A stretch of DNA of 12,149 nt, taken from NCBI GenBank assembly GCA_947625955.1, contig CANQQH010000021.1, positions 1 to 12,149 on the forward strand, read 5' to 3'. Below the pieces are notes generated by a model. The model did no database searches, had not been told where the DNA came from, and saw only the letters and a list, made by a program, of their open reading frames with translations. The position numbers were made by a program, and so were the translations under genes. The stretch's first letter is position 1, and the number at the start of each line of letters is the position of its first letter. Positions 154-11,311 of the stretch are shown one piece after another. The DNA comes from an uncultured Clostridia bacterium (GTDB lineage Bacteria; Bacillota; Clostridia; Christensenellales; UBA1242).

Positions 154-954
154 ATGAGTGGAGATTATAGTCCAGCAATGAAAGAAGAGTTCATGAATCT
201 TTTGAAAAAACAAAACATTCCGCTTTATGGCCCCACTGGGCACACATTGGATTATAGTGAGCTCGACCCCGACAAAGACGGCAACATGGCTTGCGTTCCA
301 ACAGCAGGGCAGGATTTAGATATGCTTGATTCGAACTATAAAGTTGTTTTGTCTCCCGATGTTAGTCAAAAATTTAGAGACATCATGATGAAAGCTGCCA
401 ACATCAACTATGAAGGCTCAAAAACAGAAATTGGTTTTCTTATGGTGGGCGAAGAAAAACCAGACAAAACTATTGCAATTAACAGAATGGAAATATACAG
501 CATGAATATTGGACGCGCTGGTTTTAATGATGCTCAGCACGACCTCTTAATGAAACTTGTTGACATCATGAAAGCCTATGGCGAAAAGAATAACAGAAAG
601 CCATTTTTTATTTTCGGTCACACCCACCCTGAGCAGCGCGAATTTCAAAACTTTGTTTCCAATTCTTGGAGCCTTGGCGACCTTTGGTCAAGTTATGTTG
701 CCAATAAAGTCTTACGAGGCAGAGTGCAATATGCAGATTTGTTAATAACTCCTTCTATGGATACCAACCTTTTATTTTTCGAAGATGGCAAAGTCGTTGA
801 TGAAAATTTCAAGGGCTTTTATAGATTTGCAGAAGGGATTCATTTAACCGACCTTAATGGGAAAATTGAGAGAATAAACCATGCCTACTCCGACCCAAAC
901 AGTGCGCCGCAACGACTCGACCCAAAACAATATAGCCCAGACATCTTGAAATAG
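154..954 (+). CDS. Candidate JAB/MPN+ (JAMM-like) metalloprotease-fold protein, 266 aa
   Basis: ORF with good RBS and promoter. Motifs: E92-x-x-G-x-L-x-x-G (EIGFLMVG), FIFGH156-T-H158-P, and S173-L-G-D176. These resemble the JAMM pattern E...HxH...SxxD, but the HxH-to-S spacing is longer than the canonical 7. The CDS call is firm; the family call is tentative. Confidence 0.8.
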   Translation: MSGDYSPAMKEEFMNLLKKQNIPLYGPTGHTLDYSELDPDKDGNMACVPTAGQDLDMLDSNYKVVLSPDVSQKFRDIMMKAANINYEGSKTEIGFLMVGEEKPDKTIAINRMEIYSMNIGRAGFNDAQHDLLMKLVDIMKAYGEKNNRKPFFIFGHTHPEQREFQNFVSNSWSLGDLWSSYVANKVLRGRVQYADLLITPSMDTNLLFFEDGKVVDENFKGFYRFAEGIHLTDLNGKIERINHAYSDPNSAPQRLDPKQYSPDILK

Positions 955-978
955 AAACTGGGCGGCGGACTTTTAATA

Positions 979-1009
979 TAAAAAAATCGGCAACCCGCCG
1001 ATTTTTTTG
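979..1009. terminator. Bidirectional rho-independent terminator: A-tract, GC-rich hairpin (atcggc / aaccc / gccgat), T-tract
   Basis: Stem 986-991 pairs with 997-1002, loop of 5 nt, flanked by aaaaaaa (979-985) and ttttttt (1003-1009). It sits between the convergent genes 154..954(+) and 1023..1754(-). Confidence 0.6.
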
Positions 1010-1022
1010 TGTTGTTATTTTA

Positions 1023-1754
1023 TTAAAAAATAATTCTGTTCTTTTTCAAAAAGTCGATGATTTGGTCAACAGGGATTGCAAAATTCATGCCTTCGGCGCT
1101 ATCAATTCCCGAAACAATTGCGCCGATAACCTTTCCATTTTCGTTGAAAATTGGGCCGCCAGAGTTGCCACCGTTAACAGCGCAGTCGGTCATGAGAAGC
1201 ATCTTGCCGTTGACATTTCGGCTCTTGTCGCTAACAACGCCGCTTGTTATGCAGGTTCCATAGCCGAGCGAGTTGCCAACAACATAGACCTTTTCGCCAA
1301 TCCTGACCTTTTTGAAGTCTTCGAACTTCATGGTTTTGGCTTCGCGTGGAAGATTTTTTATTTTCACAAGTGCAAGGTCCACCCCCGCCCCTGAGCCGTG
1401 ACGATCGTCGCCAAGCGCAACAACCTCAGCCGACACATTCTTTCCGCAGAGCTTCACGTCAACATTTTTGCACGAAGTTCCGTCTTCAAAGGTCACAACG
1501 TGAGTGTTCGTGATGGCGTAGCCAAGCTCATTAATCAAAAAGCCCGAACCCGAATGAACATACCTTCCGTCTGCCCATCGAATTTCAAGGATGCCATTGA
1601 TGTTCTTTTCAAAAACATCGGCGCCGCCTGACGCCTCCTTTGAACTTTTCGACGAAACCAAGTCGCTTTCACTATAAACTTGCCCGCAATAGACGCACCT
1701 AAACTTGCCGCCCTCAATCTGCTCGCAATTTCCATTACAAATTTTGCATTTCAT
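1023..1754 (-). CDS. N-terminal zinc-ribbon fused to a trypsin-like (S1 / Trypsin_2-type) serine protease, 243 aa
   Basis: N-terminus reads MKCKICNGNC...FRCVYCG (CxxC...CxxC). Catalytic triad context: ...ITNTH*VV, D*LALVKI, GNS*GGPIF (classic GxSGG serine motif). RBS AAGGAG lies 9 nt upstream. Separated by 22 nt from the upstream TIR gene, so same operon. Confidence 0.9.
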   Translation of the reverse strand: MKCKICNGNCEQIEGGKFRCVYCGQVYSESDLVSSKSSKEASGGADVFEKNINGILEIRWADGRYVHSGSGFLINELGYAITNTHVVTFEDGTSCKNVDVKLCGKNVSAEVVALGDDRHGSGAGVDLALVKIKNLPREAKTMKFEDFKKVRIGEKVYVVGNSLGYGTCITSGVVSDKSRNVNGKMLLMTDCAVNGGNSGGPIFNENGKVIGAIVSGIDSAEGMNFAIPVDQIIDFLKKNRIIF

Positions 1755-1776
1755 AATACACTTCTCCTTTGATTTA

Positions 1777-4700
1777 CTAGGTTCTTTTCCAACCCGAGCA
1801 CATCTTCAATTTTTCTGCCGCATCTTCAGGTGACAATTTATTAAAGTTTGTGTAGGTGTTCATCATCAGTCCTGAACCTGTTATCCACTCACCAGTTATA
1901 TATGCTGTTTCCAAGCCCGAAAAATTGAAGGCATCATCGCCAATTATTGTAACGGACGATGGAATTCTGATAGTTTTGAGAGACTTGCTATGTTCAAACG
2001 CACTTTGACCAATGTTGGTAACATTCCCCAAAAGAACTTTTGAGAGATTGCCGCAACTTCTAAATGCTTTATCGCCAATTACAAATGTGCTTGAAACTGT
2101 GCTGAGGTCAACGGTTTCAAGGCTCTCGCAAAATTCAAACGCGCCTTCGCCAATACCTGTTAGGCTGTTTCCAAATTGAACTGTTTTAAGGTTCCTGCAA
2201 TTTGAGAACGAGCTTTTGCCAATGCTTGTTAGGCCATTTCCAAAGTATACTTCTTGAAGGCTGTTGTTGCCCTCAAATGCATAGTCGTCAATTTCGGTGA
2301 GGCCGTTTCCAAAGTATATCACGCTGAGCTTCTTGCAGTTTTTGAATGTATAGTTATAGCCGCCGATAAGCTTTCTCTTCGCGCGGAACTGCATGGTTTC
2401 CACTCCGTCGCCAATGCTGAGCACGGTGAGTTGGCTGCATCTATCGAATGCCTGTTTGCCAATTTCGGTCACATTGTTTCCAATGTAGATTTCGTTGATT
2501 TTGTCGTTCCAATAGAAGGCTTTTGAGCTGATGGCCGTGTAGCTCTCTGGAATGATGAGTTTCTTTATGGTCTTGGTTCTTATACCGTTATTGAACTTTT
2601 TGCCAACTGCTGTCACTGGCTTGCCACGGTAGGTTTCAGGCAGCACGAGTTCGCCGTCGAACCCTTTGAGGGTGCCGAGCGAACGGATGGTGTAGCCGCT
2701 GTCGTTTTTGTCCATACGCGCGATGATTGCGTCGTCGTAGTAAACAGAGGTGGTGTTGTTTTTATAAACATAGGAAAGGCCAATAACCGCAACGCAGATA
2801 ACAAGAGGAATCAGCATTTTGAATATTGAGCCAACGCCCCTGACATTTTGAATCATTATAATGTCGAGAATTATCAACAGCACGCCAAGCAGCATATAGA
2901 GAAGAAGGAAGAAGTTGCTCTCAAAGATACCAACCGAAACAATATAGAACGCGCTGTTATAGCCAAGATAACCGCAAACTGGAATGAAGAGCAGCACCGC
3001 TGAGCATAAAAGCGAGATAATCAATAGGATTGAGCAAACAACTTTCGTCGCCAAGCGCTTTCTTTTTCTGTGGGCAAATTCTTTTTGCCTATCAATGATT
3101 TGATTGACTTTCAATAGTTCTTTCTTGATGCCAATTTCGCTAAGCTTTGTTGCCACATCGCGGATTTCAAATAGGATTGGGTCTTGGCTGACATTCTTTT
3201 TGATGCTGAAAACATAGCTTTCGTCTGGCAACTTATGTTTTTTGCAAAAATCGCGATAGAGCTTTTGCACTTTTTCTTCGAGTTCTTGTATCTCATTCCT
3301 ACGAGATTCCATGAACTTGTTGGTTTCTCGCATATGATAATCATCAATTGCCTTTTGGATTTGTGCGGAATAGTTGAAAATCTCGGTTTTGGAAGGTCTC
3401 AGGTGTTTGATAACATCGTCGAACTCTTCGGGCTTTGACAAAAGCTTGCTATATTGATCAATCGTCTTTTTGAAGATCATATATTTGTTTGCATTCTGCT
3501 TCTCAGGATGAACTTCATTAAATTGCGTTATCGCGTCGAGATAGTCTTTGTCGCGCGAAATGAAGTCGGTGAGATGCACGAGTTCAAGCAGGTTCCCTAT
3601 TCTGCGCTTTATCAAGAACTTGTTGAAATACGCGTCATAGTTATGAACATCAGTTTGCAAAAGCAAGTCGTTATAGCTATCCGCCATCTCAAAGTTTGGC
3701 TTTCTCTTTGCTTCAGCAAGCCCGAGCAGGTTGTCAATGAACTGTTGGAGATAGTCAATGAAGAGCGTGTCTTGCTTCTTTGGAATCATCTTCAAAACAA
3801 AGTCGAAGATTTTGCTTGCCTGCTCATCCTTTTCGGCTTTCACAAGGTCAATAACTTGCGCAAAAATCTTGCTTGTTGCGTAGTCGTTGAAGCCATAGGA
3901 ATAAACTTCCTTTTCAAGCACATCAAAGTTCTTCTCGTTTTTCAAAAACTCAGGAAGTTCTTTCTTGTTTGAAAGGTTCTTGATTGCAAAGTTTTCATAG
4001 AGCGCTTCCTTATCCGACTTGTCAACTTCCAAAATGTTCGCATAGCAGAGGTTGCGCGACTTTGGCACCTTGCTCAAAAACTCGCGGTTCATTTTGATAT
4101 ATTTGTCTGTGTTGGTTATGGTTTTCAAAACGCTCTTGAAGGTTTCTTCGTCTTTTGTGTCGAGCGCCTCGCGATACATGATGTCTGCGAGTTCGCTGAT
4201 CTTGGCTGGCGACGACTCAGGCAGCGAGATATACTCTTCAAATTCCCTCAAATGCTTGTGATACTTAACTCTCGAATAGAGCGCGTCATAATAAACCGCC
4301 CTCTTCGCTGGGTCAGACTCGGTGGAAATAGCCTTTTCAATGTTGTCGAAATCATAAAGTGCTCTTTTCTTTGCGATATATTGCTGCACATTTTGGCATC
4401 TGGTGTCTGCCAGTTCCAAAATCCAATATGCCGCGCTGAGCTTTGGCCTTTCCTTGATGAGGCTCTCGGCCATTGAGCTCGCCGTCACATAGTCTTCTTC
4501 ATCCAAGAAGTTTTGAAGCGTGCCGATTTGCGCGTGGTCGGACGCTGAAACAACGCCATTTCTCTCAATTTTGAGGTCGCGCTTCTTGATTTGTTGCTCA
4601 ATTACATTCTTCTTTTCAACATTGATTTTTCCGTATTCCTTACGGTCGATGTCTGGAATACGGTTCTTGCTTTCAGAGTACTTACCAACGAAGCTGATGA

Positions 4701-5619
4701 TCTTGTCTTTTGCGTCGAACTCGTCGAGCGCAATACCTTGAATTTTTCCGCTGACGCCCGGCAACCTTTCAATAATCTTGCCATTTTTGAACGCAAAAGT
4801 GATGCTGTTGAGGTGTTTTTCCTCATTCTTTATCATCTGCAAGAATCTTGTGTATTCATTCTGCACCCATTGAGTGTGGAGATAGGATTCGTCGAGGCAG
4901 ACAATGATCATGCAAGGCGAAGAATAGAGCGCATAGAGAATGTATGCCTCATAGTCAACACCGAGATTTTTGTTGAGAACTTCTTCCGAAAAGAATGGAT
5001 TGAAGCCCGCTTCTTTGAGCGCCTTATAGAGTTTCTCTGCCTCGAAATAGTCTTCGGTATGCCTTTTCTTGTTGTCGACTTCGCTGACCTTTGTACAGAT
5101 GAAGCAGTCATAGCTAACACCCGAACTTTTGAGTTCGTTGAACTTGTTCCTTATGTCGTCAATTTCGGTGCCTTTTTGATAATAGACCTTCTTTTGCTCA
5201 GGAGTTGCAAGGTCGAGCGCCTTTTTATAGTTCTTGTCTTCGGTGAACTTTTTGTTGATGACCTCATAGCAAATTGGTTGAAGACATTTCTTCACCTCTT
5301 TGGTGTTTTCGTCTTCGCGCAAACTATTCAAATATTGCACTTTTGCGTTTGCAAGCGCCATTCCAAAGTAGGCTTCGGGCTCTTCTTCGTCTTGCTCGGC
5401 AGCCTTTTGATACATCTGGTATGCGTCTTCAAATCGTCCCTTGTCAAGATCGCGTTCAGCCTCTTTCAAAAGGTCGATAACGCTTTCAGCGGCCTCATGC
5501 TTTGGAACTGTGAATGAACTGTTACAATATTTGCATATAATAACCCCATTTTTTGCTTCGTTGATGTCCAAATCCCCTTGACAGTTCGTACACTTTAATT
5601 GCGTTAGAAGCAGGCTCAT
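1777..5619 (-). CDS. 1280-aa multidomain protein: Zn-ribbon / TPR-like / TIR domain / long alpha-helical solenoid region / 3-4 TM helices / C-terminal BspA-type leucine-rich repeats
   Basis: Long ORF with an AAGGAG RBS. Domains by eye: CxxC...CxxC at aa 10-32. TIR-like block at aa ~170-300 (YDCFICTK...EDYFEAEKLYKALKEAGFNPFF...CMIIVCLDESYLHTQWVQNEYTRF), which aligns well to bacterial TIRs such as TcpB. Hydrophobic helices at aa ~860-952. Repeats of ~23 aa, FGNGLTxIGxxAFxxCxxLxxV, at aa ~1021-1245. Confidence 0.9.
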   Translation of the reverse strand: MSLLLTQLKCTNCQGDLDINEAKNGVIICKYCNSSFTVPKHEAAESVIDLLKEAERDLDKGRFEDAYQMYQKAAEQDEEEPEAYFGMALANAKVQYLNSLREDENTKEVKKCLQPICYEVINKKFTEDKNYKKALDLATPEQKKVYYQKGTEIDDIRNKFNELKSSGVSYDCFICTKVSEVDNKKRHTEDYFEAEKLYKALKEAGFNPFFSEEVLNKNLGVDYEAYILYALYSSPCMIIVCLDESYLHTQWVQNEYTRFLQMIKNEEKHLNSITFAFKNGKIIERLPGVSGKIQGIALDEFDAKDKIISFVGKYSESKNRIPDIDRKEYGKINVEKKNVIEQQIKKRDLKIERNGVVSASDHAQIGTLQNFLDEEDYVTASSMAESLIKERPKLSAAYWILELADTRCQNVQQYIAKKRALYDFDNIEKAISTESDPAKRAVYYDALYSRVKYHKHLREFEEYISLPESSPAKISELADIMYREALDTKDEETFKSVLKTITNTDKYIKMNREFLSKVPKSRNLCYANILEVDKSDKEALYENFAIKNLSNKKELPEFLKNEKNFDVLEKEVYSYGFNDYATSKIFAQVIDLVKAEKDEQASKIFDFVLKMIPKKQDTLFIDYLQQFIDNLLGLAEAKRKPNFEMADSYNDLLLQTDVHNYDAYFNKFLIKRRIGNLLELVHLTDFISRDKDYLDAITQFNEVHPEKQNANKYMIFKKTIDQYSKLLSKPEEFDDVIKHLRPSKTEIFNYSAQIQKAIDDYHMRETNKFMESRRNEIQELEEKVQKLYRDFCKKHKLPDESYVFSIKKNVSQDPILFEIRDVATKLSEIGIKKELLKVNQIIDRQKEFAHRKRKRLATKVVCSILLIISLLCSAVLLFIPVCGYLGYNSAFYIVSVGIFESNFFLLLYMLLGVLLIILDIIMIQNVRGVGSIFKMLIPLVICVAVIGLSYVYKNNTTSVYYDDAIIARMDKNDSGYTIRSLGTLKGFDGELVLPETYRGKPVTAVGKKFNNGIRTKTIKKLIIPESYTAISSKAFYWNDKINEIYIGNNVTEIGKQAFDRCSQLTVLSIGDGVETMQFRAKRKLIGGYNYTFKNCKKLSVIYFGNGLTEIDDYAFEGNNSLQEVYFGNGLTSIGKSSFSNCRNLKTVQFGNSLTGIGEGAFEFCESLETVDLSTVSSTFVIGDKAFRSCGNLSKVLLGNVTNIGQSAFEHSKSLKTIRIPSSVTIIGDDAFNFSGLETAYITGEWITGSGLMMNTYTNFNKLSPEDAAEKLKMCSGWKRT
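1885..2559 (-). other. BspA-type leucine-rich repeat array (LRR_5-like), ~9 repeats of ~23 aa, at the C-terminus of the 1280-aa protein
   Basis: Repeated consensus hxxV-x-FGNxLTxIGxxAFxxCxxLxxV, typical of Treponema/Bacteroides/Listeria-type surface LRRs. Confidence 0.7.
2764..3042 (-). other. Transmembrane helix cluster (3-4 predicted TM segments) of the 1280-aa protein, preceded by a polybasic HRKRKRL stretch
   Basis: Hydrophobic runs VVCSILLIISLLCSAVLLFIPV, (AFYIVSVGIF), FFLLLYMLLGVLLIILDIIMI and IFKMLIPLVICVAVIGLSYVY. Positive-inside rule suggests the N-terminal TIR half is cytoplasmic. Confidence 0.6.
4720..5112 (-). other. TIR domain region of the 1280-aa protein (aa ~170-300); putative catalytic Glu at aa 255 (nt 4855-4857) in WVQNE*Y
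   Basis: Aligns to the TIR alphaC motif W-x-x-x-E-L (WPARELDGL in TcpB; WCLDEL in plant TIRs). The YD-[FC]-F-I-[SC] opening strand is present. Confidence 0.7.
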
Positions 5620-5671
5620 AATTTTCTCCTTTGTATTATGTCTATTTGTTGTGTTTAGCCGTTAGCACTTT

Positions 5672-7741
5672 TCACTCCATAAGTTTTTCAATATCTTCTT
5701 TTTGAACGGATGGAGTTATCTCGCTTATTGCCTTTTCAAAATCTTCTTGGCAAATGTATTTTTCTTCGGTTTTCAGTGCCCTTAGCGCAGAAATTTCTTC
5801 CACGCGGTCCATGAGGTTGGTCATGTCGGCGCCATTATAGCCATTAGTCTTGGTCACCACGGCCGAAACATTGAAGTCGCTCGAAATTGAAACAACGCCT
5901 TTGTGCTTCACCTTTTCAAGCCTGTGCTCAATCATATACTTTCTTGCGTCGTCGTCTGGCAAGCCAACATAGATTCTTGTTCCAAACCTGCCCGGCCTTA
6001 TGAACGCTGAATCGATGTCCCAAGGCTTGTTGGTTGACGCAACCAAGAACAAGATGTTGTTGGTTTTCTTGCCATACTCTTCAATGCCCTGGATCTGCGC
6101 CAAAAATTCTGAGCGCAACTGCTTTGCTATTTGCGACCTTGTGTTCTTTGGCGAGATTGAATCCATTTCGTCAAAATACACAACCGCGCAAGGGAATCTT
6201 CTTGCTTGGTCGAAGAGTGCGCGCACCGCCTTCTCGGAGTTGCCCACCCCTTGGTTTAGAAGATCCGACGGCTTGACCGAGCAGAACTTCGCGCCAATCT
6301 CGTTTGCGATTGCAGCTGCGATCATTGTTTTGCCAGTTCCCGGAGGACCATAGAGGAGCAGTCCCCCGCCGCTCTTTCGAACGTAGCCCTCAAACGCCTT
6401 TGGATTTTTTAGCGGCAAAAGCACCTTGACTTCAACCACTTCCTTAACGCTTTCAAGCCCCGCGATGTCGTCGAACCTTATGCTTGGCAGGCTGTCCCAA
6501 TTGAACTTGAAATCGTCGTTGACTCTATCTTCATCGCTGAGCACCTTTTCCTCAGGCGAACCGAACTTGCGCTCGTCGTCCTTTGCCTCAGGTTTTGGCT
6601 CAACTTGCTTTGGCTCAATTGGTTTTGAGGTTTTATCATTTTTGAGTTCGATTTCATAGACCTTGTCAGGGAAGTCCTGCTCGGTTATTTTCAAAATATC
6701 TTCATTCGTTGGAGATGAGAGTTTCGAAATTCTTTTCGACTGCCTCGTGACAGTCTCTTCAAAAATATTGCGCACGTCTCTTGCATTTCCAAAATTATTT
6801 TCTCGATTTGCAAAGAGCGTGCTGAAATATTTCCTTATCAAATTTTTCGCACTTTCACTCAAAATATATTGATTTTTTGCGCAAAAACCTTCAAAAATCT
6901 CAAAAAGTTCTTCTCCGTTGTAGTCTGGGAAGAAGATGAAATTCTTGAATCGGGAGCTCAGCCCCGGGTTTGAAGAAATGAATTTTTGCATTGGATTGGT
7001 GTAGCCCGCAACGATGATGGCAATGTCGTTTCGCTTGTCTTCCATTTCTTTTAGTATTGTGTCGATTGCCTCTTGCCCAAAGTCGTTCATGCCGCCGTTT
7101 GCGAGAGTGTAGGCCTCATCGATAAACAAAACGCCGCCCTCAGCTTTTTTCAAAACGTCTTTGGTCTTGGTTGCCGTTTGACCAACATAGCCAGCCACAA
7201 GCCCAGCCCTGTCAACTTCAACGAGTTGCCCCTTGCTGAGAATCCCAAGCGCGCAATAAATCTGCGCAATCAGCCTTGCAACCGTGGTCTTGCCCGTTCC
7301 GGGATTGCCCGTGAACACCATGTGATACGACATCTCTGGCACACTCATCCCGCGCTCTTTTCGCATTTGGAAAACTTTGATTTGGTCAATCCAATCGCTA
7401 ACTTGGTCCTTAACGGTTTTGAGGCCGATCAAACCATTAAGCTGCGAGAGCGCCTCTTCAAGCGTGATTTTTTCATTGTTTTGAACGCTCACATCCGCAC
7501 GCTCTTCTTCGGCACTTTTCTTTTGAACGCCAATACTTTCAGCCATTGCAATCAAACTTTTTGCGCGGCTGAACCTTGCCTTTTGAAGTTCGCCAGTGCT
7601 CTGCTTCGCCATTTTGAGCATTTGCTCAGACGCCAGCAAATAATACTTCTTTGCCAGAAGTTTATCTCCGTTTTCTTGGCACTCTTTGGCTTTGCGATAA
7701 TACAAATCAAATGTTTCCGTGAGTAAGTTTATATTCGACAT
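5672..7741 (-). CDS. MIT-like N-terminal domain + tandem AAA+ ATPase (module 1 SpoVK/CbbX-type; module 2 classical AAA with Vps4/katanin-like SRH), 689 aa
   Basis: Walker A1 GNPGTGKT (nt 7286-7309), Walker B1 VLFIDEAY, and an LIGLxxVK...GNPGTGKTTVAR...GGVLFIDEAYxL signature. Walker A2 GPPGTGKT (nt 6326-6349), Walker B2 VVYFDEMD, and SRH-like ASTNKPWDIDSAFIRPGRF. The N-terminal 75 aa form a helical TPR/MIT-like region (DLYYRKAKECQENGDKLLAKKYYLLASEQMLKMAK). RBS AAGGAG. Confidence 0.9.
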   Translation of the reverse strand: MSNINLLTETFDLYYRKAKECQENGDKLLAKKYYLLASEQMLKMAKQSTGELQKARFSRAKSLIAMAESIGVQKKSAEEERADVSVQNNEKITLEEALSQLNGLIGLKTVKDQVSDWIDQIKVFQMRKERGMSVPEMSYHMVFTGNPGTGKTTVARLIAQIYCALGILSKGQLVEVDRAGLVAGYVGQTATKTKDVLKKAEGGVLFIDEAYTLANGGMNDFGQEAIDTILKEMEDKRNDIAIIVAGYTNPMQKFISSNPGLSSRFKNFIFFPDYNGEELFEIFEGFCAKNQYILSESAKNLIRKYFSTLFANRENNFGNARDVRNIFEETVTRQSKRISKLSSPTNEDILKITEQDFPDKVYEIELKNDKTSKPIEPKQVEPKPEAKDDERKFGSPEEKVLSDEDRVNDDFKFNWDSLPSIRFDDIAGLESVKEVVEVKVLLPLKNPKAFEGYVRKSGGGLLLYGPPGTGKTMIAAAIANEIGAKFCSVKPSDLLNQGVGNSEKAVRALFDQARRFPCAVVYFDEMDSISPKNTRSQIAKQLRSEFLAQIQGIEEYGKKTNNILFLVASTNKPWDIDSAFIRPGRFGTRIYVGLPDDDARKYMIEHRLEKVKHKGVVSISSDFNVSAVVTKTNGYNGADMTNLMDRVEEISALRALKTEEKYICQEDFEKAISEITPSVQKEDIEKLME

Positions 7742-7754
7742 ATCTCGTTCCTTT

Positions 7755-8321
7755 CTACTCTGCCATTTTCTTTTTCAAGCTTTCAAGTTCCTTTTCAATC
7801 TCGCTTTCAATCGAGCTTTCGGCAGTTGCTTCGTTCGTCATGAGTGAATCAAGTTCCTTGTTTTCTTCCTCAGTTCCGGCCGACGCCGTTGTGAACGACG
7901 ATTCGGTCTCGTTCATGAACTCTTCCATTTGTTCAGTTTGAACTTCAACGCCAATCATTGCCTCAGCAAACTGCTTTTGCACCTTTGCGAAGTCCGACTC
8001 TTTTGTGAGCTTCATCATGTCTTTGCTGAGCGAGCTCATACCTTTGAGAAAGTCCGCCGTCATTGCCGACATATCTTTCATTTGCGAAGTGATTTCGAAG
8101 TTTAGTTTCATCTCATAGACTCTGCGCTGCTGAGTGATTGTCATTTTGAGCCCAGCGAGAGCGAGGTTATATTGCGCCGTGAGCCCTCTTTGTTTTGCCT
8201 GCTTGCCCGACTCAATATAGCCCTTTTTCTGCTCTTCAAGTTTTTGAATTTGCTTGTTCATTTCGTTGATTGTCTTTTTGATTAGCATCTTTTTTTCGAT
8301 TTCTTTTTTACTAACACCCAT
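7755..8321 (-). CDS. Snf7/ESCRT-III-like protein, 188 aa, with a C-terminal MIM1-like motif
   Basis: Basic N-terminus, then coiled-coil core. The Met-rich helix MKDMSAMTADFLKGMSSLSKDMMKLTKESDFAKVQKQFAEAMIGVEVQTEQMEEFM closely parallels CHMP1-family alpha3-alpha4. The C-terminus EIEKELESLKKKMAE resembles the MIM1 consensus [DE]xxLxxRLxxL[KR]. A 13-nt gap with an RBS separates it from the downstream AAA gene. Confidence 0.75.
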   Translation of the reverse strand: MGVSKKEIEKKMLIKKTINEMNKQIQKLEEQKKGYIESGKQAKQRGLTAQYNLALAGLKMTITQQRRVYEMKLNFEITSQMKDMSAMTADFLKGMSSLSKDMMKLTKESDFAKVQKQFAEAMIGVEVQTEQMEEFMNETESSFTTASAGTEEENKELDSLMTNEATAESSIESEIEKELESLKKKMAE

Positions 8322-8334
8322 AATTTTTCCTCAA

Positions 8335-8937
8335 CTATTCCTCTGGATTTTCCGAGGTTTTTTTGCTTCCCTCAGCAAACATTTCTTGCTCAGCTTCAAC
8401 TTGGTCCTCAGTTTCGAACATGGCAAGCAAAGCATCGTCGTTTGCGTTTGCACCATAGATGCTTTCGTTCTTCTCATATGCCTCTTCAACCTGCTTGAAA
8501 GTCTCATCTGCCGAGGTCAAAACGTCCTCTGCCGAGATCCTGTTTCCAAGCGCTTTGTTGAGAAATTTTGCGAGCCCTTTTTGGTCAGCAAGCAAATTCC
8601 CAAGCGACGCCTTTGACGCGTTTTTGAAAAACTTATTGTCGTCAATTGTGTTTTTCAGCTTGTTCAAAAGACGAATGTTATACATCAAATACATCGCTCT
8701 TTGCACGTTCTGCTCTCTGTCGGCTTTGAGGTTGGTTATCTTCTTTGCATAGAAGAGCCTGACGTCCTGAGATTTCTCCGCCCTGCCCTTTGCCATAAGT
8801 TCGTCTATCTGCTTGCTCTTTGAAGCGAGGTCTTCTTCAAGGTCTTTTTCCTCTTGCTCCAATTTGCAAATTGCGTCAACCACATTCTCACGAGTGAGTT
8901 TGTCATATTTATTTTTGAAAAAAAACATAATTTTCAC
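8335..8937 (-). CDS. Second Snf7/ESCRT-III-like paralog, 200 aa, with an acidic C-terminal tail. The ORF track gives a GTG start at 8937, but the ATG at 8928 (MFFFKNK...) has the better-placed GGTG RBS.
   Basis: Coiled-coil helical protein. The segment ISAEDVLTSADETFKQVEEAY matches the Snf7 LDIDKVDETMDEIREQVE region. Acidic tail reads EDQVEAEQEMFAEGSKKTSENPEE. Confidence 0.6.
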   Translation of the reverse strand: MKIMFFFKNKYDKLTRENVVDAICKLEQEEKDLEEDLASKSKQIDELMAKGRAEKSQDVRLFYAKKITNLKADREQNVQRAMYLMYNIRLLNKLKNTIDDNKFFKNASKASLGNLLADQKGLAKFLNKALGNRISAEDVLTSADETFKQVEEAYEKNESIYGANANDDALLAMFETEDQVEAEQEMFAEGSKKTSENPEE

Positions 8938-8940
8938 CTA

Positions 8941-9282
8941 CTATATCTTTGAATTTCTGTCGGCAATTGCGAGTTTTATTTGCGTGAGCATTGACTTTAT
9001 TTTCTTGTCAACTTCGCCGTCTGCCTTAACGAGCGCGATTCGCATATCTTCAATAAAATGCTTAATTTTCGTGTCATACTCAACAACCTTTGGATCGTCG
9101 GATGGAATGAGATACTTGATTTTTTCCTTTGTTTCCTTCAAGTCTTCCACCATTTCTTCGTTTTCGCCAGCGAGCAAAATCAAGGCGTCGATTGCTCTTT
9201 CATTCTCGCTGATAAGTTCGCGGTTTGCACCAACCTTTTCAGCTGATGATTTCTTTCCAAATATTTTTTTGAATAAACCCAT
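8941..9282 (-). CDS. Small (113 aa) all-helical hypothetical protein with an N-terminal amphipathic basic motif MGLFKKIFGKK
   Basis: ORF packed 3 nt from the next gene. An AAGGAG RBS lies in the 14-nt gap to the upstream gene. No recognisable catalytic motif. Confidence 0.7.
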   Translation of the reverse strand: MGLFKKIFGKKSSAEKVGANRELISENERAIDALILLAGENEEMVEDLKETKEKIKYLIPSDDPKVVEYDTKIKHFIEDMRIALVKADGEVDKKIKSMLTQIKLAIADRNSKI

Positions 9283-9296
9283 TTTCTTTCTCCTTT

Positions 9297-10349
9297 TTAT
9301 TTAAGTTTGTTTCCGCAACCTGAACAGAATGTTGCGTCGGCGTCATTTTCTTTTCCACACTTTGAGCAAACTTGTTTCTCTTTCACAACCTTCTTGCCGC
9401 ACTTTGAGCAGAACACGTCGTTTGCTTTGAGCTCAGCACCGCAATGTGGGCAGAATGTTTTTTGCGCGGCAGCAGCCTTATGCTTTCCACCCTCTTGATT
9501 TGGATGCCCAATAACTTTCAAAACCTCATAGTAGGCGTTTCTGTCTTGAAGTTCAAGCTGACGAAGATACTTTTCTCTTTCCCACTCTTTGTCGTCGAGC
9601 CTCTCAACTTCTTTGAGGTATTCCTTTATCTTCTCTTGTCTCTTAGCCTCGGCAGCAGCGTCTTCAACGGCATTGCTGTCCTCTTCGGAAATTCCAAGAT
9701 ATTCAATGATGAAGTCAACGAGCGAAATACCCCACGACTTGTCGAACTTCTCGCTCAAAATCTTTCCCGACTTTGTTGCAATACTCTTGCGGTTTGCGTC
9801 GAACTGGTCATAGGTGAGCTTTGCCTCTTTCACAACTTTCAAGAAGCAGTCTGCAAACTCGTCAACAACGGCGGCAGAGAATCTCTTTTTGAACTCTTGC
9901 AAGTCAAACTCCTTCTTCACACCCACAACTTTCCTGAAAAATTGCTCTGGGTTTGAAATTGAGATTCCAAACTGACCTCTTGCCCCAACGCTGACAACCT
10001 TGTTGCTGGCTTCGTCGCGATATTTGATTTTCTCAGGTGTGCCCCACAAAATCAAAACGCTGGTGTCTTTGGGCATATAGATGATGTCAACCGAGAAACC
10101 TTTCTTCCAGTTCTTCACTTCGTCTTTTGTTTCAAAAACATTATAGTGACCGCTCTTATAGAACTTCCCATTGTCGCCCCCCTTGATAACATAAGCGTTG
10201 TGAGTGAATGGAACTTCAAACATTGCATCCTTCTCGCGAATCTCGTCAGACACCCTGACGAAAAGCACGCTGTTGTCGTCAACCTTGGCGTTGCAATGAT
10301 TCTGCTCAAACTTGATAATTTGCTGTGATTTTTTAGAAAATAAACCCAT
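9297..10349 (-). CDS. SPFH/Band_7_1-like (YdjI / COG4260-like) protein with a C-terminal double zinc-ribbon, 350 aa; first gene of the operon
   Basis: N-terminus MGLFSKK... The N-terminal half has the MG[LI]F...F.V...A.VI..G......SG.Y.V.T pattern recalled for Band_7_1 (so-called virion core protein) family members. The C-terminus has CPHCG...CSKCG and CSKCG...CSGCG zinc ribbons. RBS AAGGAG 9 nt upstream of the ATG. The SPFH assignment rests on remembered family features only. Confidence 0.8.
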   Translation of the reverse strand: MGLFSKKSQQIIKFEQNHCNAKVDDNSVLFVRVSDEIREKDAMFEVPFTHNAYVIKGGDNGKFYKSGHYNVFETKDEVKNWKKGFSVDIIYMPKDTSVLILWGTPEKIKYRDEASNKVVSVGARGQFGISISNPEQFFRKVVGVKKEFDLQEFKKRFSAAVVDEFADCFLKVVKEAKLTYDQFDANRKSIATKSGKILSEKFDKSWGISLVDFIIEYLGISEEDSNAVEDAAAEAKRQEKIKEYLKEVERLDDKEWEREKYLRQLELQDRNAYYEVLKVIGHPNQEGGKHKAAAAQKTFCPHCGAELKANDVFCSKCGKKVVKEKQVCSKCGKENDADATFCSGCGNKLK

Positions 10350-10390
10350 CTTGATTTTCTCCTTGAAAAATAAATTTGTGTAATAATGTA

Positions 10391-10419
10391 ACTATATAAC
10401 TATATACATAATATGTCAA
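10391..10419 (-). promoter_or_regulatory. Strong sigma70-like promoter for the minus-strand operon: TTGACA (10419-10414), 17-nt spacer, TATAGT (10396-10391)
   Basis: Hexamers read on the reverse complement, followed by the AAGGAG RBS (10364-10359) and the ATG at 10349. A tandem AACTATATA / ACTATATAC repeat overlaps the -10 region. Confidence 0.55.
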
Positions 10420-10813: not shown

Positions 10814-11311
10814 TTGGAGAATAGCATGATAAAACTAAAACAATATCGAGACCCATGGCTCGCAGAAAATTTCGATGAATTTATAGGGTTCTACCCACGC
10901 GAATATTTTGTCTTTGACAATTTCTCGTCGTTTAAGGTTCTTTATAACGGCGTGCTTTATTCCACCGTTGAACACGCATATCAGGCAAGCAAATTTTTGG
11001 AAACCGCCCCTGAAATCGCAAAGCAAATTACCGAAAGCTATTCGGCGCACGAAGCGCAAAAAATCGCCTATGCAAACAAAGACAAGCAGCGCGCGGATTG
11101 GGACATCATCAAGGTTGACTTCATGGAAAAACTTTTGCGAGCAAAACTTGAACAAAACCCTTATGTTAAGAAGAAACTTCTTGAAACTGAAAACTACATG
11201 ATATGCGAAGATTCACCAAAAGATAGTTTTTGGGGTATCGGGCCCGACAGAAAAGGGCAAAACCAACTTGGCAAACTTTGGATGAAACTTCGAGATGAAC
11301 TAAGAAAATGA
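10814..11311 (+). CDS. NADAR-domain (YbiA / DUF1768-like) protein, predicted ADP-ribose / NAD-derivative-processing hydrolase. The ORF track starts at TTG 10814; the likely true start is the ATG at 10826, with a GGAG RBS at 10816-10819.
   Basis: Motifs FDNFSSF, STVEHAYQASKF, ADWD and ENYMICEDSPKDSFWGIGPD...GQNQLGKLWMKLRDEL match the NADAR consensus (FSNF / EH.YQA.KF / DW / P.D..WG.G...G.N.LG..LM.VR..L). Confidence 0.85.
   Translation: MENSMIKLKQYRDPWLAENFDEFIGFYPREYFVFDNFSSFKVLYNGVLYSTVEHAYQASKFLETAPEIAKQITESYSAHEAQKIAYANKDKQRADWDIIKVDFMEKLLRAKLEQNPYVKKKLLETENYMICEDSPKDSFWGIGPDRKGQNQLGKLWMKLRDELRK

Follow-up and report, generated by a model that had tools for sequence, protein, structure and literature searches.

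Background

Proteins of the ESCRT-III superfamily occur in archaea, eukaryotes and bacteria, and their genes are found in several kinds of neighbourhood. In archaeal ESCRT loci, the genes for the ESCRT-III-like protein and the ATPase are adjacent to each other. In the archaeal Meth_adaptin ESCRT loci, Vps4 and ESCRT-III are accompanied by an SPFH protein in which a coiled coil and zinc ribbons are found (Makarova et al. 2024, PMC10936438). In bacteria, coupling of an SPFH protein to PspA is known for YdjI of B. subtilis (PMC10936438; PMC11237479). The pspA-ydjGHI genes of this species, which belong with the PspA/Vipp1/LiaH systems, combine an ESCRT-III-superfamily protein with a Band_7_1 SPFH protein and zinc-ribbon proteins under a membrane-stress logic. 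Proteins with MIT and AAA domains are likewise present in some bacteria, ESCRT-III-superfamily genes adjoin AAA+ ATPases (Ravi et al. 2024, PMC11237479), and in bacterial transfers of MIT+Vps4 a TPR+6TM gene displaces snf7 (PMC11237479). A 2025 review stated that a Vps4-like ATPase appears to be absent in bacteria (PMC7619361), and recent surveys describe bacteria as lacking the pairing of a Snf7-type protein with such an ATPase. This pairing is the main feature of the bacterial operon reported here.

The operon shares with archaeal and eukaryotic ESCRT-III (Snf7, PF03357) the helix order and the C-terminal MIM1-like helix of one protein (g4), with Vps4/CdvC the MIT-like N-domain, classical AAA ring and Vps4_C helix of its ATPase (g5), and with archaeal ESCRT loci the adjacency of the two genes; in single-ring relatives of the ATPase, length and pore loop are also those of Vps4/CdvC. 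It differs from archaeal and eukaryotic ESCRT in its bacterial host and its coupling to TIR, protease and nuclease genes, and the operon genes as assigned include no ESCRT-I, ESCRT-II or CdvA. Unlike Vps4/CdvC, g5 carries an extra SpoVK/CbbX-type ring, a classical ring without the pore aromatic, and RPGRF instead of RRRF in its SRH. The SPFH protein (g1) has, by description, the architecture of its Meth_adaptin counterpart, but the adaptin-appendage, GOLD and ProX components of those loci are not among the operon genes. The composition and membrane-stress logic of pspA-ydjGHI recur here, but the matches of g4 are to Snf7 and the CHMPs instead of PspA_IM30 or Vipp1, and a dedicated MIT-AAA ATPase is present. 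From the dyad of PspA with two AAA+ proteins and from the MIT+Vps4 transfers the operon is set apart by a SpoVK-type first ring (D1) with intact Walker motifs, by its Snf7-type partner and by the linkage to SPFH, TIR and protease genes.

TIR domains with a glutamate at the catalytic position, as in g6, are also found in Thoeris ThsB, in the TIR effectors of CBASS and Pycsar, and in TIR-STING, yet the operon contains neither ThsA nor a cyclase or other known partner of TIR defence systems. Polymorphic repeat 'sensor' regions are common to TIR-based defence, Toll-like receptors and the TIR proteins of these operons. Toll-like receptors also combine LRR, TM and TIR segments, but in g6 the order is reversed, the TIR domain being N-terminal. 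A preliminary description of the locus had claimed that no bacterial system of such composition was known; indeed, the literature searched contains no description of the operon, and the linkage of TIR proteins to an ESCRT-like module is undescribed there.

Organisation of the operon

The window, i.e. the whole stretch of DNA analysed, comprises 12,149 nt of contig CANQQH010000021.1 (assembly GCA_947625955.1) from an uncultured Clostridia bacterium (Christensenellales; UBA1242); the contig belongs to gut Clostridia. Seven co-oriented ORFs (g1-g7) lie on its minus strand (Table 1), and this set was recovered together with its promoter and terminator as first described. From g1 to g7 the spacers measure 14, 3 (or 12), 13, 13, 52 and 22 nt, in keeping with the 3-52 nt reported earlier. 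Promoter sites of equal score number only three within the window. The hairpin downstream is predicted to be a bidirectional terminator between g7 and a convergent ORF (154-954). An AAGGAG-type ribosome binding site had been proposed for each gene: the motif is exact 5' of g1, g2, g6 and g7, but weaker at g3 (AGGTGA), g4 (GAGGAA) and g5 (AAGGAA). Among the Pfam families expected for the proteins, Band_7_1, AAA, TIR_2, LRR_5 and Trypsin_2 were found, whereas Snf7 stays below threshold on g4 and MIT does not match g5.

Table 1. Features of the seven-gene operon (positions in the window)
Feature	Position	Strand	Length	Remarks
Sigma-70-type promoter	10391..10419	-		TTGACA-17-TATAGT; 11/12 matches; 41 nt 5' of g1
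g1, SPFH (Band_7_1, YdjI-like)	9297..10349	-	350 aa	Band_7_1 60.3 bits (gathering score 24), residues 30-232
g2, conserved small protein	8941..9282	-	113 aa	Amphipathic N-terminus MGLFKKIFGKK
g3, all-helical protein	8335..8937	-	197-200 aa	Start more likely ATG at 8928
g4, Snf7-type ESCRT-III protein	7755..8321	-	188 aa	Conserved MIM1-like C-terminus
g5, two-ring AAA ATPase	5672..7741	-	689 aa	MIT-like N-domain, D1, D2, Vps4_C helix
g6, TIR-TM-LRR protein	1777..5619	-	1280 aa	TIR_2 29.7-32.6 bits (gathering score 28); LRR_5 150.8 bits
g7, trypsin/HtrA-like serine protease	1023..1754	-	243 aa	Trypsin_2 96 bits
Intrinsic terminator hairpin	974..1014	both		T-runs on both strands; directly 3' of g7

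ESCRT-III-like proteins

Against Pfam Snf7 (gathering score 27.3), g4 of the window reaches 15.3 bits over residues 14-168, and members of its family reach 27.3-28.9 bits. Snf7 is matched by 12 of the 82 family members, collinearly and over nearly the full length, and every other Pfam family by one member at most. Searched against the PDB, the family profile retrieves CHMP2A (E 9e-5), followed by CHMP1A, CHMP1B, CHMP3 and Vps24, with neither PspA nor Vipp1 among the matches; the top 21 Foldseek matches of the g4 model are all ESCRT-III. These results support an assignment of g4 to Snf7/CHMP-type ESCRT-III rather than to the PspA type. The C-terminal tail (E172-x-x-I175-x-x-E178-L179-x-x-L182-K183) agrees with MIM1 at five of six positions, Glu standing in place of the MIM1 Arg, and is kept across the family, diverse members included, which bears out the MIM1-like C-terminus noted before.

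For the g3 model, the best Foldseek matches are CdvB2 filaments, and g3 is probably, at fold level, a second ESCRT-III-like subunit. Both models are of medium confidence (pLDDT ~62). Where two Snf7/CHMP-type proteins distinct from PspA/Vipp1 had been claimed, the assignment stands for g4, while g3 is ESCRT-III-like by its model.

The ATPase and its single-ring relatives

In g5, the MIT-like N-domain (~1-75) and the classical AAA domain D2 (416-685) are separated by the inserted D1 (99-357), a SpoVK/CbbX/EccA-type AAA domain with AAA_lid_6. The motifs of D1 are intact (Walker A 145-152, Walker B 205-211, pore loop GYVGQT 184-189). D2 possesses AAA_lid_3 and both Walker motifs (A 465-472, B 522-527), but its pore loop is degenerate (NQGVGNSEK 496-504) and has lost the aromatic residue. 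With 23.2 bits, the C-terminus is above the gathering score of Pfam Vps4_C (21.3). Pfam MIT gives no match on g5 of the window; it is matched by 3 of 22 N-domains (best E 8e-4), and hhalign with manually entered MIT seeds gave 73% probability, compared with 14% for the reversed control. We regard the N-domain, from these sequence comparisons, as MIT-like with moderate confidence. The ATPase had been presented as a MIT-AAA protein of Vps4 type; the MIT-like domain and the Vps4_C helix agree with this, but the inserted ring had been overlooked and the supposed Vps4/katanin-type SRH is in fact of the Cdc48/FtsH type (RPGRF 582-586).

Relatives with a single ring are 370-390 aa long. They align with residues 8-367 on positions 6-367 of the 370 positions of the archaeal CdvC model, and their pore loop is SDIVSKWVGESEK, i.e. 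the Vps4 pore loop SKWVGESEK. Scores on the CdvC equivalog model (NF041006) are 184-222 bits, far under the cut-off of 650. As Cdc48 and CdvC are matched about equally well by the D2-type ring in these relatives, the ATPase is called Vps4-like here, a term that does not imply Vps4 orthology.

SPFH, TIR and protease proteins

The Band_7_1 domain of g1 confirms the earlier SPFH assignment. The protein also carries a coiled coil, the N-terminus MGLFSKK and two C-terminal zinc ribbons (Zn_Ribbon_1, 59 bits, at 299-321; another at ~324-349), and no TM helix was predicted in it. A search with g2 yielded no significant family; in many of its relatives, including those beside single-ring ATPases, a TM helix replaces the amphipathic N-terminus.

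The TIR-TM-LRR architecture first read in g6 proved correct: a zinc ribbon with a TPR unit (1-~170) is followed by the TIR domain (~170-330), a long helical region, three to four TM helices (~854-954) and BspA-type LRR_5 repeats (~1010-1280). Because the helices number three or four, the topology of the LRR region is ambiguous. The TIR domain has a catalytic-type glutamate (Glu255, in WVQNE) that does not vary among 11 aligned sequences and whose conservation over 40 TIR regions is at least 80%; the TIR profile matches the TIR domain of RUN1 (E 3e-6), with the invariant Glu aligned to that of the RUN1 WCLDE motif. In g7, rightly called a serine protease, an N-terminal zinc ribbon (CxxC...CxxC) accompanies the GNSGGP active site. 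It scores 123 bits against the DegP/HtrA subfamily, under the cut-off; no TM helix was predicted in g7, and the protease would be cytoplasmic.

Conservation and genomic context

Relatives are encoded by 111 of 185,579 species-representative genomes, and the order g1-g5 recurs in 80 species-level loci. Partners were counted in 42 species loci with full flanks, from uncultured Christensenellales/Clostridia. There, g3 and g5 are always present (42/42 each), g1 is found in 41 and g2 in 40, and the conserved unit consists of the five genes g1-g5. Snf7-like, ATPase and SPFH genes stay linked across the loci, but the full seven-gene composition first emphasised is not: TIR proteins occur in 21 of the 42 loci (29 if proteins with the N-module of g6 alone are counted), the protease in 18 and LRRs in 7, and TIR and protease genes shift position between loci. 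Some loci possess two or three TIR copies, and the C-termini of the TIR proteins vary (LRR, RCC1, Sel1/TPR, L12_C). Since about half of the full-flank loci are without a nearby TIR gene, the core can work without TIR.

TIR linkage recurs even in distant variants, in which the Snf7-like domain is fused to a RuvB-like ATPase and NERD or TnsA-like nucleases; these nuclease fusions are encoded in operons of this kind as well. Other fusions involve FtsK/SpoIIIE-type ATPases. Homologues of the window's flanking genes were not found among 88 loci, the flanks being non-syntenic, and integrase, Rep or resolvase genes adjoin some loci. Searches of phage, plasmid and IMG/VR collections recovered neither the DNA of the window nor the g4 family. 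PADLOC reported no known defence system, its matches being confined to generic AAA (IetA, TRIP13) and protease entries, with none for g6.

Possible function

With a probability of roughly 60%, we consider the operon a bacterial form of the ESCRT-III/Vps4 machine that remodels membranes, here with a changing set of immune-type partners, most likely acting in conflict (anti-phage or abortive infection) or in the response to envelope damage. The SPFH scaffold g1 and the small membrane-associated g2 would label or organise an area of the membrane on its cytoplasmic side, where g4, probably with g3, would polymerise. Hexameric g5 would dock via its MIT-like N-domain onto the MIM1-like helix of g4 and pull out subunits, by which the polymer would be remodelled or recycled. 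In the two-ring g5 of the window, threading has probably shifted to the inserted SpoVK-type ring, because D1 keeps an aromatic pore loop and the classical ring has lost its aromatic. The membrane-anchored TIR protein g6, with its variable repeat C-terminus, and the protease g7 would have accessory roles; the accessory set of TIR, protease and nuclease fusions fits a sensor or effector layer, and NAD+ cleavage or signalling by TIR as well as proteolysis may be tied to the assembly of the polymer at the membrane. The shifting and multiplied TIR genes, the varied C-termini of their products, the conserved Glu, the nuclease fusions, the non-syntenic flanks and the integrase neighbours point to a conflict role.

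Alternatively, the operon could serve housekeeping or stress-related envelope maintenance, like PspA-YdjI or LiaH, repairing or stabilising the membrane without any part in immunity and with TIR as a scaffold or adaptor. Pairing of a Band_7_1 SPFH protein with the ESCRT-III superfamily is the theme of B. subtilis pspA-ydjGHI (PMC11237479; PMC10936438), and the frequent absence of TIR beside the core and the negative PADLOC result would suit such a role. We nonetheless regard it as rather unlikely, given the patchy spread (111 of 185,579 species representatives), the non-syntenic flanks with integrases beside some loci and the retained TIR Glu, and since the polymorphic repeats and the nuclease fusions are hallmarks of conflict systems and not of housekeeping genes. 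A Cdv-like scission machine for division, vesicle budding or sporulation, gained from archaea by gut Clostridia, is improbable: the operon is accessory and patchy, lies at different genomic places and has no CdvA among its assigned genes, and effectors of the TIR, protease and nuclease kinds would not be expected beside a division apparatus. In its favour, single-ring ATPases match the CdvC model from end to end, the best Foldseek matches of g3 are CdvB2 filaments and D1 resembles SpoVK. Least credible is the reading in which ESCRT plays no part and the helical proteins are unspecific coiled-coil adaptors or substrates that serve an AAA secretion or chaperone-protease system (EccA/T7SS-like, or HtrA-type quality control), as the D1 score on the T7SS EccA model (275 bits, under cut-off), the FtsK/SpoIIIE fusions and the sub-threshold Snf7 score of g4 might suggest, against which stand Snf7 as the sole recurrent Pfam family, the CHMP matches of the family profile, the uniformly ESCRT-III Foldseek results and the mutual consistency of MIT-like N-domain, Vps4_C helix and MIM1-like tail.

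Operon organization

The seven ORFs of the window, here named g1 to g7, lie head-to-tail on the minus strand with intergenic gaps of 3-52 nt. A promoter (TTGACA-17-TATAGT, 11/12 matches) is located 41 nt upstream of g1, and a hairpin followed by a T-run occurs directly 3' of g7. As ORFs, promoter, hairpin and ribosome-binding sites were all found, the preliminary description of the operon as seven co-oriented genes with short gaps, bounded by a single promoter and a single terminator, is accurate; only the AAGGAG-type ribosome-binding site that it placed before each gene has to be qualified, being exact at four genes and weaker at the other three. The true start of g3 is probably the ATG at 8928, in line with the N-termini of homologues and with a 197-aa database record.

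Genes of the operon and of its flanks in the window
Gene	Positions	Strand	Assignment
g1	9297-10349	-	Band_7_1 SPFH
g2	8941-9282	-	no known family
g3	8335-8937	-	no known family; first ORF call
g4	7755-8321	-	weak near-full-length Snf7 match
g5	5672-7741	-	two-ring ATPase
g6	1777-5619	-	TIR, TM, LRR_5
g7	1023-1754	-	Trypsin_2/HtrA-like protease
NADAR gene	10814-11311	+	NADAR; divergent from the operon promoter
266-aa ORF	154-954	+	convergent with g7

A predicted Snf7-type ESCRT-III protein

The g4 protein of the window matches Pfam Snf7 (PF03357) near its full length with 15.3 bits, below the gathering score of 27.3, whereas two members of its family attain this threshold (P0331, 28.9 bits; P0382, 27.3 bits), and the Snf7 membership of g4, which had been expected from the window sequence itself, therefore rests on the relatives and not on its own score. 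Indeed, Snf7 is the sole recurrent Pfam family among 82 diverse g4-family members, 12 of which match it (best E 9.6e-7). More than 650 close homologues of g4, all unnamed, were found, and a profile search of 1.84 billion cluster representatives returned 374 clusters. The profile of the diverse family (A3) matched human CHMP2A in the PDB (E 9e-5, positions 8-149), followed by CHMP1A, CHMP1B, CHMP3 and Vps24; the narrow g4 profile (A1) gave no matches to PDB sequences, and only the diverse one reached the CHMPs. An AF2 model of medium confidence (pLDDT 61.5) has helices at residues 5-45, 48-104, 108-147 and 151-187, i.e. the ESCRT-III helix order with an alpha1-alpha2 hairpin and then alpha3-alpha5. 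When this model was compared with the PDB by Foldseek, the top 21 matches all belonged to the ESCRT-III superfamily (CHMP1B, CHMP2A/3, Snf7, Asgard ESCRT-IIIB, Vipp1), with a best E of 5e-3 and a TM-score against the Snf7 N-domain of 0.77 (normalised by target length, for a medium-confidence model). Because the Pfam matches of relatives, the CHMP profile matches, the helix order and the Foldseek ranking agree, we conclude that g4 is a predicted bacterial Snf7-type ESCRT-III protein, of the Snf7/CHMP rather than the PspA/Vipp1 type, as had been proposed. Membership of g3 and g4 in the PspA/Vipp1 family is not supported: the PspA_IM30 (PF04012) profile matches neither protein, PspA/Vipp1 is absent from the PDB sequence matches of the g4 profiles even at E <= 10, and Vipp1 figures as a lower-ranked fold match only.

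MIM1, the C-terminal motif bound by MIT domains, has the consensus (D/E)xxLxxRLxxL(K/R). The C-terminal peptide of g4, SSIESEIEKELESLKKKMAE, bears a predicted MIM1-like motif, E172-x-x-I175-x-x-E178-L179-x-x-L182-K183, which agrees with five of the six positions of the consensus and has Glu at the Arg position. In 20 homologues no variation occurs at I175, E178, L179, L182 and K183, E172 is found in at least 90% of them, and the motif is kept in family members of 41-64% identity, which is consistent with the MIM1-like C-terminus suggested earlier for this protein.

Many g4-family members begin with MGLFKSK, and g1 and g2 of the window likewise begin with MGLF. An N-terminal motif of the type M-G-L-F-(K/S)-x-K is common to g1 and g2 of the window, the g3 homologues and the g4 family, and it resembles the motifs by which eukaryotic CHMPs insert their N-terminus into membranes.

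The ATPase and its relatives

The g5 protein, which had been read as a single MIT-AAA ATPase, does possess the classical AAA ring (D2, residues 416-685, with AAA_lid_3 and then a C-terminal Vps4_C helix), but carries a second, inserted ring (D1, residues 99-357), an AAA domain of SpoVK/CbbX/EccA type in which AAA_lid_6 is present and the Walker A and Walker B motifs are both intact. Vps4_C (PF09336) matches residues 568-689 with 23.2 bits (gathering score 21.3) and is weaker (17-20 bits) in single-ring relatives. The relatives of g5 occur in two forms, a two-ring form of ~680-730 aa, as in the window, and a single-ring form of ~370-390 aa, which comprises the same N-domain and only the classical ring; the N-domain is conserved in both. 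Single-ring relatives align end to end with the NCBIfam model of CdvC (archaeal Vps4), e.g. 8-367 against 6-367 of 370, with alignments beginning at model position 6-9. The scores against this model are 184-222 bits (211-222 in the single-ring form) for an equivalog cut-off of 650, and the D2-type ring of single-ring relatives scores similarly or higher with the Cdc48 model.

Pfam MIT (PF04212), predicted for the N-domain, has no match on g5 of the window but is found in 3 of 22 homologous N-domains (best E 8e-4). An hhalign comparison of the N-domain with six MIT sequences gave 73% probability (reversed control 14%), and a weak PDB match (E 0.12) was obtained with the chitin synthase 1 chain 2mpk_A, a MIT domain. 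The SRH (second region of homology) reads R(P/S)GRF in all forms of g5 and is thus of Cdc48/FtsH type, whereas the meiotic clade (Vps4/katanin) has RRRF-type arginine fingers; the Vps4/katanin-type SRH of the preliminary description is therefore wrong. In single-ring relatives, the pore loop is SDIVSKWVGESEK (SKWVGESEK; loci L053-L084 compared), which is nearly identical to the Vps4 sequence. This K-W-(M/L/V)-G-E-S-E type is absent from g5 of the window, where the D2 loop is NQGVGNSEK. Since the classical ring of the two-ring form has lost its pore aromatic (NQG[A/V]GN[T/S]EK) while the inserted SpoVK-type ring carries GYVGQT, comparison of the two forms suggests that substrate threading has moved to the inserted ring. 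Overall, g5 is Vps4-like in architecture and logic, and at most a candidate Vps4 orthologue.

The proteins g3 and g2

Of the two Snf7/CHMP-type proteins originally postulated, g4 stands and g3 is uncertain. A diverse g3 profile had no meaningful match in the PDB or Pfam, and hhalign, with probabilities of 0.2% (local) and 5.5% (global), gives no support to paralogy of g3 and g4 at the sequence level; g3 is a plausible, though unproven, second ESCRT-III-like subunit. The g3 homologues of the single-ring clade (loci L056, L058, L064, L069, L072 and L084; A7 alignment) end in KKKKxKMEE, a sequence similar to the end LKKKMAE of g4 that may form a second ATPase-docking tail. PADLOC and PHROGs yielded no system or family for g2, g3 or g4.

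We predict that g2 is a conserved membrane-tethering partner. Its N-terminus is amphipathic, of MGLF/MCFF type, in the closest relatives of the window, and a clear N-terminal TM helix is present in g2 of many other loci, including those with a single-ring ATPase (L001, L016 and L053-L084 compared).

SPFH, TIR and protease genes

Residues 30-232 of g1 match Band_7_1 (PF13421), as anticipated, with 60.3 bits against a gathering score of 24 (profile positions 4-207 of 211), and the protein also has a coiled coil and two zinc ribbons. The g6 protein consists of a zinc ribbon/TPR unit, TIR_2, a long helical region, 3-4 TM helices and LRR_5 repeats. The TIR/TIR_2 and LRR_5 domains foreseen for it were recovered with 29.7-32.6 bits (gathering score 28) and 151 bits, respectively. 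The TIR profile matches the RUN1 TIR (E 3e-6), and E255 of g6 (WVQNE) aligns with the Glu of RUN1 WCLDE, the catalytic Glu; the Glu of WVxNE does not vary among 11 aligned sequences and is conserved to at least 80% over 40 TIR regions. By its fold match and the Glu at the catalytic position, the TIR domain of g6 is a putative NADase. The idea that the N-terminal module of g6 is another MIT domain, through which TIR proteins would be recruited to MIM tails, is not supported by hhalign (probability 31% for MIT and 0.7% for the N-domain of g5), and a zinc ribbon with a TPR unit is the better reading. In g7, a zinc ribbon is joined to a Trypsin_2/HtrA-like protease; a signal peptide and a TM helix are absent.

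Conservation of a five-gene cassette

In a scan of one genome per species, relatives were found in 111 species; 80 loci were fetched. Almost all of these belong to uncultured members of the Clostridia, Christensenellales or Christensenellaceae from animal guts, and as one long contig also carries Spo0A, the contigs are bacterial. Among the 42 loci with full flanks, g3 and g5 are present in all, g1 in 41 and g2 in 40. By contrast with these core genes, a TIR protein is present in 21 of the 42 (29 if proteins with the g6 N-module are included), the g7 protease in 18 and LRRs in seven. The seven-gene unit first envisaged is thus conserved in its g1-g5 part, and the suspected association of Snf7-like and ATPase genes with TIR genes does recur. 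This shows a conserved five-gene cassette in which an SPFH protein is linked with a Snf7-type protein bearing a predicted MIM1-like tail and with a MIT-like AAA ATPase; TIR proteins, a protease and nuclease fusions are recurrently, though not always, associated with this cassette. The position of the TIR gene varies (before g1, between g3 and g4, between g4 and g5, after g5 or after g7), some loci have two or three copies, and the C-termini of the TIR proteins differ (LRR, RCC1, Sel1/TPR, L12_C).

Some loci show decay or rearrangement of the operon: in L003 (7755-9817) the ATPase is broken into pieces of 124 aa and 555 aa, and in L086 (2672-3502) a 276-aa LRR_5 gene follows g4 in place of the ATPase.

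Distant variants and fusions

Even very distant variants keep the same operon logic. The Snf7-like domain of the g4 family is found N-terminal to a RuvB-like AAA+ domain with a NERD or TnsA-like nuclease, or to FtsK/SpoIIIE ATPases (P0295, P0345, P0356, P0374, P0296 and P0306; loci L089-L091 and L095), in operons with further genes for Band_7_1, a stand-alone Snf7-like protein and a MIT-AAA ATPase of the single-ring form. For example, the metagenomic locus L089, the only RuvB-NERD locus examined, encodes a fusion of a Snf7-like domain, a RuvB-like AAA domain and NERD, together with a trypsin, Band_7_1, a protein of 344 aa, another Snf7-like protein, a single-ring ATPase and a TIR protein with a zinc ribbon/TPR unit. 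At other distant loci, the same core is accompanied by a Snf7-like-FtsK fusion or by genes for PP2C, a kinase and vWA. In L093 (2264-6374), genes for a PP2C phosphatase, a Ser/Thr kinase and vWA proteins precede the core, as do two YbjN-like genes in L095.

Proposed role and significance

The feature is real and conserved, and represents a new bacterial variant of ESCRT-III/Vps4 with an unusual periphery of TIR, protease and nuclease proteins. The core idea of the preliminary description holds with four corrections, i.e. the two-ring ATPase, the Cdc48-type SRH, the uncertain g3 and the five-gene unit. No description of the operon was found by a full-text literature search of incomplete coverage, so that an earlier description elsewhere is possible. 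According to a 2025 review, a Vps4-like ATPase appears absent in bacteria (PMC7619361). Ravi et al. 2024 (PMC11237479) reported MIT+Vps4-like transfers to some bacteria with snf7 displaced, as well as PspA with an inactive-AAA/AAA dyad and PspA-Band-7-zinc ribbon operons. These systems lack the composition of the operon studied here, and its identification with PspA plus the two-AAA+ dyad fails on differences in architecture and partners. In archaeal Meth_adaptin ESCRT loci, Makarova et al. (PMC10936438) described an SPFH protein that has a coiled coil together with zinc ribbons.

We propose that g1 and g2 would organise a membrane patch on which g4, probably with g3, would polymerise; g5 would bind the g4 tail and extract subunits, and the TIR proteins and the protease would be sensor and effector, or activator. 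Three features that characterise conflict systems favour a putative role in defence or envelope damage, namely a distribution that is patchy and non-syntenic, repeat domains that are polymorphic, and nucleases fused to the Snf7-like domain; a purely Psp-like function in stress is a serious rival. Tentatively, with a probability of about 0.3, this defence role may be extended to a true Snf7/Vps4-type ESCRT machine in gut Clostridia (Christensenellales), perhaps derived from archaea, that would serve as the assembly platform of an innate-immune-like system. The trigger would then be detected by TIR receptors in the membrane that bear LRR or other repeat sensors, with the protease acting alongside them; effectors with their own Snf7-like domain (RuvB-like with NERD/TnsA-like nuclease, or FtsK-type) would co-polymerise with the ESCRT-III filament, which the MIT-AAA ATPase would reset. 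If true, membrane repair by ESCRT would be linked, in a prokaryote, to cell-death signalling of the TIR type.

A conserved bacterial operon that combines a Snf7-type protein, a MIM-like tail and a MIT-AAA ATPase would change the picture of bacteria as devoid of this pairing and could offer a simple bacterial model for the recycling of ESCRT-III polymers. It also bears on the history of ESCRT (horizontal transfer versus deep ancestry, and an old link to SPFH proteins), and the recurrent coupling to TIR, protease and nuclease proteins indicates that abundant gut bacteria may hold a class of membrane-centred conflict systems not described so far.

Genomic setting

DNA of the whole window matched no record in the phage and plasmid collections searched, and a search of IMG/VR viral contigs for the g4 family was negative. 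PADLOC-DB v2 (Thoeris, ietAS, Lamassu and others) gave no full signature set and no matches for g2, g3 and g6, only generic domain-level ones (the D2 AAA ring was matched by IetA and TRIP13, and g7 by the RT-protease and LmuA protease domains). The flank genes of the window (NADAR, a hydrolase and the 266-aa ORF) have no homologue in the 88 loci compared and are therefore not part of the system. For the 266-aa ORF, Pfam, NCBIfam, PHROG and PDB gave no match; its E...G...G and HTHPE...SLGD pattern, read from the sequence alone, might recall the JAMM/MPN metallopeptidase motif, without support from these searches. Flanking genes are in no case common to the loci, and integrase, Rep or resolvase genes adjoin several of them.

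The NADAR gene scores 105.6 bits with Pfam NADAR and 84.5 bits with the NCBIfam model 'NADAR family anti-phage protein' (cut-off 240). No homologue of it was found in the other loci; in L087/L088, a Macro-domain gene lies near the operon, and the two genes could reflect an ADP-ribose theme beside TIR genes.
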